Below, one piece after another: positions 38,020 to 41,000 of a stretch of DNA of 64,000 nucleotides. The position numbers and the translations under genes are program-made. The stretch comes from Monosiga brevicollis MX1 (Eukaryota): contig NW_001865039.1 in the NCBI RefSeq assembly GCF_000002865.3, positions 2,212,438 through 2,276,437 of the forward strand. Direction: 5' to 3'. The notes beneath the pieces are model-generated. The model had not been told where the DNA came from. It saw only the letters and a list, made by a program, of their open reading frames with translations, and ran no database searches. Positions within the stretch are counted from its first letter, which is position 1. Every line of letters begins with the position of its first letter.

Positions 38020-41000
38020 CACCCCCCCCAAAAAAAAAAGCAAGTGAGCAAAGCGAACCTGGTCGGTGTTGGTCACAAATTCCAGCGATTTGTTGTTTGA
38101 ACTATTCTTGTCAATGTTGACGATGCCATAGTGCTGAATGTTGAGTTTCTTGGTCAACTCTGCTAGTTTGCTACAAAGGAAGTGCTGATGAGGGGCAAAT
38201 GCTTTTCAAAAGAAAAACCAAACAAATAAAAAACAAAAAACAAGAAAAAAAAAACCCCCGTCACCTTTTCTCACCTGGCATTATCGTTGACAAACCAGAC
38301 AGCAAATTCATATGACTGCACGTCGCCTTCTGGCATAGAGTCAAACCTGCAAGTATTGGATTGGAGATGGATGTCTTGAGAGGATATGCCGGGAGTGGAG
38401 AAGGATGTATGTGCGGATAGATATTGCTGGACGAACGAACAAACGACGTACACTCGACGGAAACACAAGCGGTTCCGGAGATGCGAGGCCTTGGTCCGGA
38501 GAAATGCATCAAAAGGCATGATCACATTCTCGACGTCTTCCGGATTGCAAAAGACAACAACATCACGCCGATGCATCTTGCTTTCGGCGAATAAGGGATC
38601 CTATCAATTTGGAGCACGAGGTACGAGAACAGATGCTAGATCAACCTGATGCGCGGTTTTCGACATGCTTTCTGAACGCGTGTGCAAATGAGCGTCTTAC
38701 CACATTGCTTGCCCTGCTAGCAGCAATGGCAGAGGGGTGGACATCACGACTGGCCGTCAGCACCTATCATAAGCCAATCAGGTACCACGGTGTTCATAGT
38801 CAGCGTTCAAACTTTTGATATGCACTCCAATTCAGAAAAACCCACCTCTTTGCAAAACGCTTCAATGCTGGCAGCACCACCATCATTGTTTTGCTCTGAA
38901 AAAGAAAAATCCTGATACTCGGACTAAATGCGACATGCATATGATGAGGCACAAGGTTACCTCGGGAGGACTTGCTGATAGGCACCATGCATGACGGGGT
39001 ATGTGGGCATGGCGCTGGCCATACCGGCAAAATTAGGCGTGTCTCATCATCAACAGGCTCGTTCACGGGGTCTAAAACAAACACCATAAACTTTTTGCTA
39101 CGAGCATTTTCAGCTTCCGCACGACAGTACTGGGATTTGGACCAGCCCGTCGAGAAAAGTACCACAAAGATGTGGCAATACGAAATCTGTGAGGTTACAA
39201 CTTTGCGCCAGTCCTCGCTTCTATACAAATGGAGGAAAAGCAGGTTATGTTTGCTCAGTTTGGCCAAACCCGGCCCCGTATAGTGCACACACAGCGCAGC
39301 AAGTGGCGTCGCAATTCACAAACCCCTGAATTTCGCGGTCCACAAAGAAGCTCACGCCAAGCTTATCCAACTGACGGAGAGACCTATGAGAGACCTCGGA
39401 CTATGAGAGCCGGATAGAACATTTTGAATTGACATCAAGGCATTTCCGCTGCATGACATACGCGTTCACTGTGTCGTCGTGACACTCGTGCTTGTAGCTG
39501 ATGAAGACGTCTTTGAGTCGTGCTGTGACACACCGCCGGTGACAGTGAGCCAGTCAGCCCTCCAGACTCTGCCGTTGATTGCGATGAGCTCAAGGCTCCA
39601 AGGATTCGTCCCCACAAACCTGCTTTGCGTAGTTTTTCAATGACTTTTGCACCTTTGCTCGTGCTTGCACTCAGTTGTTCTACGCCAGTCAAAGTGCAGT
39701 CAAATGGCAACAGGAGACATGAGACCAGAAAGTTACAAGAAAGAAAGAAAGAAGAATACCACCTCCAGGTCGCGATTGATTTGCAGCAATCAGTAGCTTG
39801 AGCAAACAGGTCATGACCGACATCATCTGTTGCACAGAAAGTCCTACCAGGCGTTTTGCTGTCAGCATCCTTGCTAGTGCTTCCCAGAAGCTGAGAAATG
39901 GATAGAACAATTTTTTGTTGTTGTGGCGTCCATTGAGAGTCAGCTGCATTGTCGGGGGAGGACACAGGGTGCCTGTCTTGGTGAAGGGCAGTTGTGCCTC
40001 GAAGGGCATCGACAATGATGGACACGGCTTGATCTGGCTCCTGCCAAGGGGCCAACACGGCGGCGTGCAAGATGTTGCTATGCAAACAACCGAGCGTTGA
40101 GAGACAGCTCTGTTTCTCAAAAGAGCATGGCCAAGCGCTGCCAGCGTGAGGCGAACAAACATGTACAGTTAGTTGCATGTACTTACCGCGACCCGCGCCC
40201 GAGTTCCTTGTCGCTAGCCGATGGTAAGTGAGCGCCCCAATCTCGGCCACACCAGCCATTCCAGTTGGCAATGATATTGTGACAGGCTCCTTGGGTGGCA
40301 CCAAACAGGAAATGGTCCTGAGCAAGTCAGGCGGGGGTGGGTGGGTCAGATCAAGACGCGAACATGGCGGTAATCCTCCGATATCTGCTGACAGAAAGCA
40401 CGGGGTACCTCTCGATCGGTGCCAGAGAGAATCTCGCAAAAATGCGGGGCATTTTCCTCGGCATCGGGATGACAGAGAGCAGTGTCAATGACGTCACATG
40501 TAAAACGCCCCAAGTCGAGGGTGCCAGGCTCGCTCCGCATTTGAAAGTAATGGAAGCAGTAAGCCACTAAAACTTGAACCAAAGGGGTTTTAGACTCTGC
40601 AACCGAGTTGGCAAAAGCATTGGGGGCATCTGCTGTGGCCAAAGGAGACTTTTTGGGATTCTGCGAACCTACGATCATTTCAGCCGAGGTTTCCCAGACC
40701 CAAACGTGAGCCAACTTTTCAGTCAATAATACTCATCCCTAGTAGACAGCTCAGACATTCGAAAGACAACTTCAAGGCCATTCAACGCACTAAAAATCCG
40801 CCCGGTCAAATGCTTAAACTCGGCCAAATCCTTTAGTTCAGATGAGTCGGCGTGCTCATAGAGTAGTCGGAGAAAGCACAGAGCATCGGCAATTTCAGCG
40901 GCTTCGGAATCTTTTGCATTGCGTGCGTAAGATAGCACAGTCCGTCCATATCGATCCTTTTGCTTGAGCTGCTGCAAGAGCGACTCATGGTCAAGGCTGG

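Follow-up and report, generated by a model that had tools for sequence, protein, structure and literature searches.

An intron-split TIR domain with a glutamate at the catalytic position in Monosiga brevicollis

Introduction

Does a locus of short exons in the genome of Monosiga brevicollis MX1 encode a TIR domain, and, if so, could that domain be of the kind that cleaves nicotinamide adenine dinucleotide (NAD+)? The locus lies at positions 38846 to 39522 of a stretch of 64,000 nucleotides (nt) of contig NW_001865039.1 (RefSeq assembly GCF_000002865.3, positions 2,212,438 to 2,276,437), which we call the window and in whose numbering all coordinates are given. A sequence-only reading of this stretch had proposed that four exons here encode a bacterial-type TIR domain with an intact catalytic-type glutamate. 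NAD+-cleaving TIR domains are drivers of cell death and of immune signalling in bacteria, plants and animals, and to our knowledge most eukaryotic TIR clades beyond the model organisms are unstudied. An atlas of TIR domains counts 7,432 domains of eukaryotic origin, many of them in uncharacterised clades (Culbertson et al. 2026, PMC13142454).

Evidence for a TIR domain

The splice model that we tested consists of GT-AG exons on the minus strand of the window. The four stretches proposed for the domain do lie on that strand, and each is flanked by AG...GT. Exon 1 (39462..39522, acceptor cacAG, donor GTATGT) covers strand A with the box 1 motif DVFISY; exon 2 (39324..39383, acceptor catAG, donor GTTTGT) covers the end of helix A, strand B and the start of the BB loop, with the motif FFVDREIQG; and exon 3 (39025..39220, donor GTATGG) contributes 65 residues that run from helix B through strand C and helix C to strand D. 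Between them lie intron 1 (39384..39461), which is 78 nt long and reads GTATGT...AG, and intron 2 (39221..39323), which is 103 nt long and reads GTTTGT...tatAG. The glutamate of helix C is residue 35 of exon 3 (E35), encoded by the GAA codon at 39115..39117 within the motif YCRAE. Spliced in frame, exons 1 to 3 encode a TIR domain up to about residue 105, with no stop or frameshift and with all splice sites canonical and in phase. One boundary had to be corrected: exon 3 had been ended at 39024, but this base is the G of the exon 3 donor and its inclusion shifts the frame, so that the exon ends at 39025. With that end, joining the four blocks by script gives the peptide originally described. 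Canonical introns interrupt the domain itself, which shows that the gene belongs to the eukaryote and rules out contamination from bacteria.

Exon 3 alone matches the Pfam family TIR_2 (PF13676; STIR clan) with an E value of 6.2e-5 and 23.9 bits. A full HMMER search of 1.84 billion representative proteins with exon 3 returned only two relatives at E<=0.001, P0001 and P0002, and both are TIR proteins. P0001 is a metagenome protein of 110 residues that is 45% identical to exon 3; a version of it with 123 residues (P0013) matches TIR_2 at 38.8 bits, against a gathering score of 28. The contig that carries the closest relative was sought in two metagenome scans, and no locus could be confirmed in either. 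P0002, which is the closest relative from a named lineage, is a protein of cyanobacterial type with 1,043 amino acids, in which three tandem TIRs, each with a YCxxE motif, are followed by WD40 repeats; it is 37% identical to exon 3 over 43 residues (E 1.6e-4 in the 1.84 billion proteins). Its own relatives (P0003-P0012) include one named 'TIR domain-containing protein [Lyngbya aestuarii]'. These cyanobacterial proteins share the [Y]Cxx[E] motif with the window TIR, but they combine two or three tandem TIRs with WD40 repeats, whereas a single TIR is found here and WD40 was not detected in a Pfam scan of the flanking open reading frames (ORFs).

We built a hidden Markov model (HMM) from 21 TIR domains of P0002-type proteins, with nothing from the window included. 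This cyanobacterial HMM scored exon 3 at 22.0 bits, exons 2 and 3 together at 27.0 bits, and exons 1 to 3 at 38.8 bits, a gain of 5 bits from exon 2 and of 11.8 bits from exon 1, indicating that every one of the three exons adds collinear signal. When the same HMM was run over all six frames of the window (2,215 stop-free segments), the ORF with exon 3 came first (E 6.8e-5) and the ORF with exon 1 second; all other segments scored at most 3.5 bits, and the scan showed no second copy (paralogue) of the TIR domain in the window.

The HMM was also used to score each of the 14,556 ways in which two stop-free GT-AG exons can be placed before exon 3. The exon 1 and 2 pair of the sequence-only reading ranked second of the 14,556 with 38.8 bits, against a median of 21.6 and a 99th percentile of 28.4. 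The pair that ranked first (38.9 bits) is a variant of it in which the boundaries of intron 1 lie at 39470/39394, a shift of 8 and 11 nt, and the donor is poorer; the exon 1 block occurs in all 12 best-scoring pairs. A test with exon 2 as the sole upstream exon did not discriminate, its rank being 7 among 162 with an equal score for an out-of-frame block; the test with two exons was the decisive one. The alignment of P0013 with the spliced peptide runs through the exon 2/3 junction ungapped, with 27 of 66 residues identical, and lends independent support to that junction. Box 1 and the BB-loop region, both named in the original proposal, are in register with TIR profiles: DVFISY of exon 1 falls on HMM profile positions 4-10, where box 1 is expected, and FFVDREIQG aligns with vWfDq.di.aG of the HMM and with the glycine column of 22 cyanobacterial TIRs.

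A single-sequence search of the PDB with exon 3 gave no match, nor did a word-index homology search, which covered longer proteins only. Profile A2 combines exon 3, P0001 and one cyanobacterial TIR, and we examined the best 60 of its 90 PDB sequences at E<=1. The best group was formed by the bacterial TIRs 7uxr, PdTIR (3h16) and AbTir (7uwg and 8g83), with E values from 2e-11 to 8e-10, together with Cat1; the match to the AbTir-type TIRs is partly driven by the cyanobacterial sequence inside the profile. A second group contained TLR15, TLR2, TLR1 and TLR6, the first three of them at E 1e-8 to 1e-6, and after the TLRs came TIR-STING, TcpB, SARM1 (6e-5) and plant TIRs. A profile free of bacterial sequence (exon 3, P0001 and P0013) gave eight PDB matches at E<=10, of which seven are TIRs. 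Cat1 (9mud) was the best of these, with E 0.0045, and the eighth, non-TIR match is the ribosomal protein eS1.

An AlphaFold model of the exon 3 fragment, made with 8 sequences and with a predicted local distance difference test (pLDDT) of 66.5, consists of a helix (3-14), a strand (19-22), a second helix (30-41), in which the glutamate lies, and a second strand (45-48). This predicted order fits helix B, strand C, helix C and strand D of a TIR domain. A Foldseek search with the 65-residue model returned nothing at E<=0.001, the TIR chains being scattered among generic alpha/beta matches; the fragment is too small for such a search. The proposal of a TIR domain is upheld by the Pfam TIR_2 match, by the cyanobacterial HMM scores and by the PDB profile matches, and, judged from its sequence, the locus is part of a nuclear gene of a eukaryote and encodes a genuine TIR domain.

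The glutamate at the catalytic position

We then asked whether E35 occupies the catalytic position of TIR domains that are NAD+-cleaving enzymes (NADases). E35 is invariant in all three alignments that we made (A1, A2 and A3). In the A2 alignments its column pairs with the glutamate of WTNYE in AbTir, WPQKE in PdTIR, WTEYE in 7uxr and WCWDE in Cat1, and in the alignments of the bacteria-free profile the glutamate is again in register, including with WCLDE of the plant TIR 7xoz. NADase TIRs have a helix-C glutamate four residues after an aromatic residue (WxxxE), and the window TIR has the same arrangement, with tyrosine as the aromatic. The aligned glutamate of the AbTir chain is presumably residue 208, given the boundaries of the construct. 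The catalytic glutamate of AbTir is E208 (PMC10022894). The assignment of the YCxxE glutamate to the NADase catalytic position, as originally made, agrees with its alignment to the glutamates of AbTir, PdTIR, Cat1 and the plant TIR. A conserved glutamate by itself is no proof of NADase activity; such activity of the window TIR is plausible.

Relation to other TIR families

Two parts of the original proposal did not hold. A TIR_2 match had been equated with a bacterial-type domain, but the TIR_2 HMM matches nearly every TIR clade and is unfit for subtyping, as stated in the atlas (PMC13142454). The domain had also been called SARM-like rather than TLR-like, but the order of the profile matches is AbTir-like bacterial TIRs, then TLRs, with SARM1 reaching only 6e-5.

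Pfam TIR (PF01582), the family of the TLR, IL-1R and MyD88 type, scored 12.1 bits (E 0.17) with a 171-residue ORF that holds exon 3 and thus part of the domain, below its cutoff of 21.3. In this respect the window TIR is like the uncharacterised eukaryotic clades of the TIR atlas, being a eukaryotic TIR recognised by the broad TIR_2 model only. With the bacterial NADases of the AbTir, PdTIR and BtTir type (7uwg, 8g83, 3h16 and 7uxr), which matched profile A2 at E 2e-11 to 7e-10, it shares box 1, the BB-loop glycine and the helix-C glutamate in register, as well as a comparable domain length as far as strand D. It differs from them in that it belongs to a eukaryotic gene with spliceosomal introns, has tyrosine for tryptophan four residues before the glutamate, does not align in its C-terminal third, and has unrelated N-terminal partner regions. 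Cat1 (CRISPR-associated TIR 1, 9mud) was the best match of the bacteria-free profile and has its WCWDE glutamate aligned with E35. Cat1, however, is described as a CARF-TIR fusion that is switched on by cyclic oligoadenylate (PMC12162218), and no CARF domain was seen in the window. The SARM1 TIR also has an FISY box 1 and a helix-C glutamate, but it is a weaker match than the bacterial TIRs and the TLRs, and no ARM or SAM domain was found at E<=1 in 7 ORFs upstream or downstream, so that the ARM-SAM-SAM-TIR architecture of SARM1 is not seen here. Neither NB-ARC nor NACHT had a Pfam match in the flanking ORFs or in the 109 large window ORFs scanned, and the architecture of TIR-NLR (STAND) proteins was likewise not found.

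Nor does the domain belong to the TIR-like defence families with which it was compared. The Thoeris protein ThsB (PADLOC ThsB1) scored 12.2 bits with E 0.017, far below its cutoff, FxsC (NCBIfam FxsC_Nterm) scored 22.5 bits against a cutoff of 130, and ThcB4 scored 11.6 bits against a cutoff of 220. The window TIR is a new and divergent member of a well-known domain family; such domains are common in eukaryotes and have already been catalogued there.

The 3' end of the TIR exons

The C-terminal part of the domain would be encoded by putative exon 4 (38846..38923, minus strand; acceptor ttAG, donor GTGGGT; within the ORF 38807-38923), which would follow putative intron 3 (38924..39024), 101 nt long and reading GTATGG...ttAG; this intron hinges on exon 4 being real. 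In the proposed division over four exons, exons 1 to 3 are supported by the TIR HMM, whereas exon 4 adds only 0.3 bits to their score and is without homology support. Other candidate 3' exons (38600-38452, 38763-38701 and a read-through of intron 3) scored lower than exon 4. In a MAFFT alignment exon 4 falls loosely on the lP..F...L pattern that the cyanobacterial TIRs show at their C-terminal end. Should the GTGGGT donor at 38845 be unused, the frame continues for 12 codons after exon 4 to a stop at 38809-38807. On the reading that we favour, the short spliceosomal introns that cut the TIR domain number two at the least, and probably three. Downstream of exon 4 lies an open block (38452-38600, minus strand) whose composition is strongly coding-like, with guanine plus cytosine (GC) fractions of 0.60/0.36/0.58 at the codon positions, and which matches no family; this block could be one more exon of the TIR gene. 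A gene finder of our own, based on dynamic programming, introduced too many introns, removed real TIR sequence and ran into a microsatellite, and we did not use it as evidence.

The region upstream of the TIR exons

What protein does the TIR domain belong to? Directly upstream of the TIR region and on the same strand lies a multi-exon gene for a PfkB (ribokinase-like) protein (41373..43327, minus strand), which shows collinear pieces of the PfkB profile: positions 29-64 at 42990-42664, 153-208 at 42201-41974 (E 0.12) and 241-291 at 41678-41166. The last PfkB exon (40791..41286, minus strand) finishes the PfkB fold and has a positive coding score, and a GTGCGT donor at 40790 could skip the stop by splicing to 40668. 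Left unspliced, its frame (40726-41286) runs on for ~165 residues past PfkB, helical and with positive coding scores, to a stop at 40725-40723. The ESM Atlas likened this extension to ankyrin-repeat proteins (0.95-0.96), which is a lead only, since the recognition is below the usual level. The extension, as a 188-residue ORF, had no match in Pfam, PDB or word-index searches, and its AlphaFold model from a single sequence was uninformative (pLDDT 37.2). An ankyrin-like tail would be unusual for a ribokinase, whether it is joined to the TIR domain or not.

Between the PfkB extension and the TIR exons lie further putative exons on the minus strand, for which no family match was found. The first (40364..40668) is part of a 128-codon frame (40349-40732); the ATG at 40677-40675, 48 nt past the upstream stop, is the sole candidate start for a separate TIR gene. 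The second (40187..40317), which has weak coding statistics, stands between mini-introns of 46 and 49 nt that read GTTCGC...CTGAC...CAG and GTAAGT...CTAAC...CAG, with CTGAC and CTAAC resembling branch sites. The third (39848..40137, donor GTAGGA) lies inside a 349-codon open frame (39438-40484) that also reads through a pyrimidine-rich, intron-like stretch of 168 nt (39680-39847); parts of this frame are probably exons of the TIR gene. An ESM Atlas search with the 288-residue frame 39621-40484 gave no usable match. The last putative exon (39620..39679), a linker helix placed by its splice signals, has a phase-1 GTTTGT donor that fits the phase of TIR exon 1 over a 97-nt intron.

A stop-free, in-frame chain of 571 residues to the stop can be made from 41286-40791, 40668-40364, 40317-40187, 40137-39848, 39679-39620 and TIR exons 1 to 4. 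Its donors are GTGCGT, GTTCGC, GTAAGT, GTAGGA, GTTTGT, GTATGT, GTTTGT and GTATGG, all with G at +5, and its introns measure 122, 46, 49, 168, 97, 78, 103 and 101 nt. Under strict splice rules (donor G at +5, YAG acceptor, exons of at least 50 nt, introns of 40-200 nt) 736 stop-free chains connect the upstream exon to TIR exon 1. When the intervening 1.27 kilobases (kb) were shuffled with dinucleotides preserved, any chain at all was found in 13 of 200 shuffles, and at least as many chains in 4 of 200. The real sequence is far more bridgeable than its shuffles, which shows that most of the 1.27 kb before the TIR exons is exonic; by itself this is no proof of the first link to the PfkB gene. Read in this way, the TIR domain forms the C-terminal end of a larger protein encoded by many exons, or lies close to that end, and is preceded by ~265 or more unrecognised residues.

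How this protein begins can be answered in more than one way. For a single gene that encodes PfkB, the ankyrin-like region and the TIR domain, we put the chance close to even; a separate TIR gene starting near 40677 seems rather unlikely, and some other gene structure takes up what is left. It is possible, and we propose it tentatively, that a fused protein of ~900 residues would consist of PfkB, the ankyrin-like helical region, the ~265 unrecognised residues and the TIR domain as C-terminal effector, in which the kinase fold would serve as ligand sensor or regulator of the TIR NADase, as the ARM domain of SARM1 senses nicotinamide mononucleotide and NAD+. No fusion of TIR with PfkB or ribokinase was found in the literature searched, judging by search listings. 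The possible PfkB fusion is the only potentially new element of the locus; by itself, one more divergent, intron-bearing TIR with its catalytic glutamate intact is a modest addition. If a TIR domain were indeed fused to PfkB kinase-like and ankyrin-like regions, this would be a new combination of sensor and effector, with which one could test directly whether a TIR NADase is gated by a kinase fold that binds a metabolite.

Weighing the explanations

The reading that we favour, and that we regard as reasonably probable, is that the locus encodes an intron-split eukaryotic TIR domain within a larger protein, which keeps the elements of enzymatic TIRs and most likely cleaves NAD+. The elements kept are box 1, the BB-loop glycine and, where helix C begins, the aromatic-x-x-x-Glu motif (YCRAE). 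The rest of the protein, with its N-terminal regions, would bring TIR copies together, two TIRs would then build a composite active site, and the glutamate would cleave NAD+ to nicotinamide and ADP-ribose or a cyclic ADP-ribose isomer. The outcome would be depletion of NAD+ or a nucleotide signal, in a context of stress, immunity or cell death. Catalysis, oligomerisation, product and biological role are carried over here from the TIR family, for which this would be the most likely mechanism.

Several observations weigh against this reading. Four residues before the glutamate there is a tyrosine in place of the tryptophan of AbTir, Cat1 and the plant TIR; P0001 and the cyanobacterial relatives also have tyrosine at that position, whereas the solved NADases carry tryptophan. 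Dictyostelium TirB and TirD retain the glutamate, and NAD+ processing by them was not seen, according to the atlas (PMC13142454). The score of exon 3 alone is under the gathering score of TIR_2 (23.9 against 28 bits), as expected of an exon that is half a domain. The C-terminal third of the domain was recognised by no profile tried, and the TIR exons are only weakly coding-like by codon usage, in codon log-odds windows that separate coding from non-coding sequence poorly in this region. The tyrosine, and the example of TirB and TirD, also favour the main alternative, in which the domain would be a non-catalytic module for protein-protein assembly, an adaptor or scaffold as in TLR/MyD88 signalling, with the glutamate kept for structural reasons; so does the standing of TLR TIRs as the second-best group of PDB matches. 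But bacterial NADases head the matches (AbTir, PdTIR-like chains and Cat1), the score with PF01582 stays at 12.1 bits against its cutoff of 21.3 while TIR_2 reaches 23.9, and neither leucine-rich repeats, a death domain nor another adaptor partner was found in the flanking ORFs. We consider an assembly module unlikely, though it deserves to be kept in mind.

Could the exons instead be a decaying or unexpressed relic, left from an old acquisition and outside any functional transcript? The weak codon-usage signal and the unrecognisable C-terminal part would agree with a relic, as would the scarcity of relatives, only two at E<=0.001 among the 1.84 billion representatives, and the base composition, since the 2-kb bin that contains the TIR exons (38001-40000) has the lowest GC in the window (0.480, against 0.51-0.585 elsewhere). 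A relic is nonetheless improbable, given that exons 1 to 3 are free of stops and frameshifts, that their splice sites are all canonical and in phase, that the diagnostic motifs are all intact, and that the upstream 1.27 kb can be bridged by open exons far more readily than its shuffles. That the resemblance arose by chance and no TIR is there is very improbable indeed, and this explanation is effectively refuted by the HMM scores, the six-frame scan, the PDB profile and the splice ranking. It could appeal to the score of exon 3 alone, under the Pfam gathering score, and to the empty single-sequence PDB search; it would have to account for three collinear and phase-compatible blocks that each raise the score, for a splice model ranking second of 14,556, for TIRs as seven of the eight PDB profile matches, and for two library matches that are both TIR proteins.

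Surroundings of the locus

The window has a GC content of ~55%, and its genes have short GT-AG introns and include typical eukaryotic families, namely protein kinases, RasGAP, Nop53, OSBP, GH16/KRE6-like and GT61. The frames 62788-63663 (+), 15588-16451 (-), 60765-61127 (-) and 36482-36915 (+) cover a GH16/KRE6-like glucanase, a GT61 glycosyltransferase, Nop53 exons and acyl-CoA-dehydrogenase-like ORFs. The pair of acyl-CoA-dehydrogenase-like ORFs, recognised by eye and without a Pfam match at E<=1e-4, converges on the TIR gene. Long dinucleotide and hexanucleotide microsatellites are frequent, with 17 tandem-repeat rows in the 64 kb; they include 37927-38018, 43832-44005, 44867-44962, 45339-45487, 49790-49984 and 59690-59910, and a (CA)46 tract lies just 3' of the TIR gene and a (TC)87 tract 5' of the PfkB gene. 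Three long frames on the plus strand are intronless, in contrast with the intron-dense PfkB and TIR genes: one of 1,154 residues with a tyrosine-kinase-like domain (24487-27948), one of 929 residues with no family (20788-23574), and one of 395 residues that encodes a protein kinase (12828-14012).

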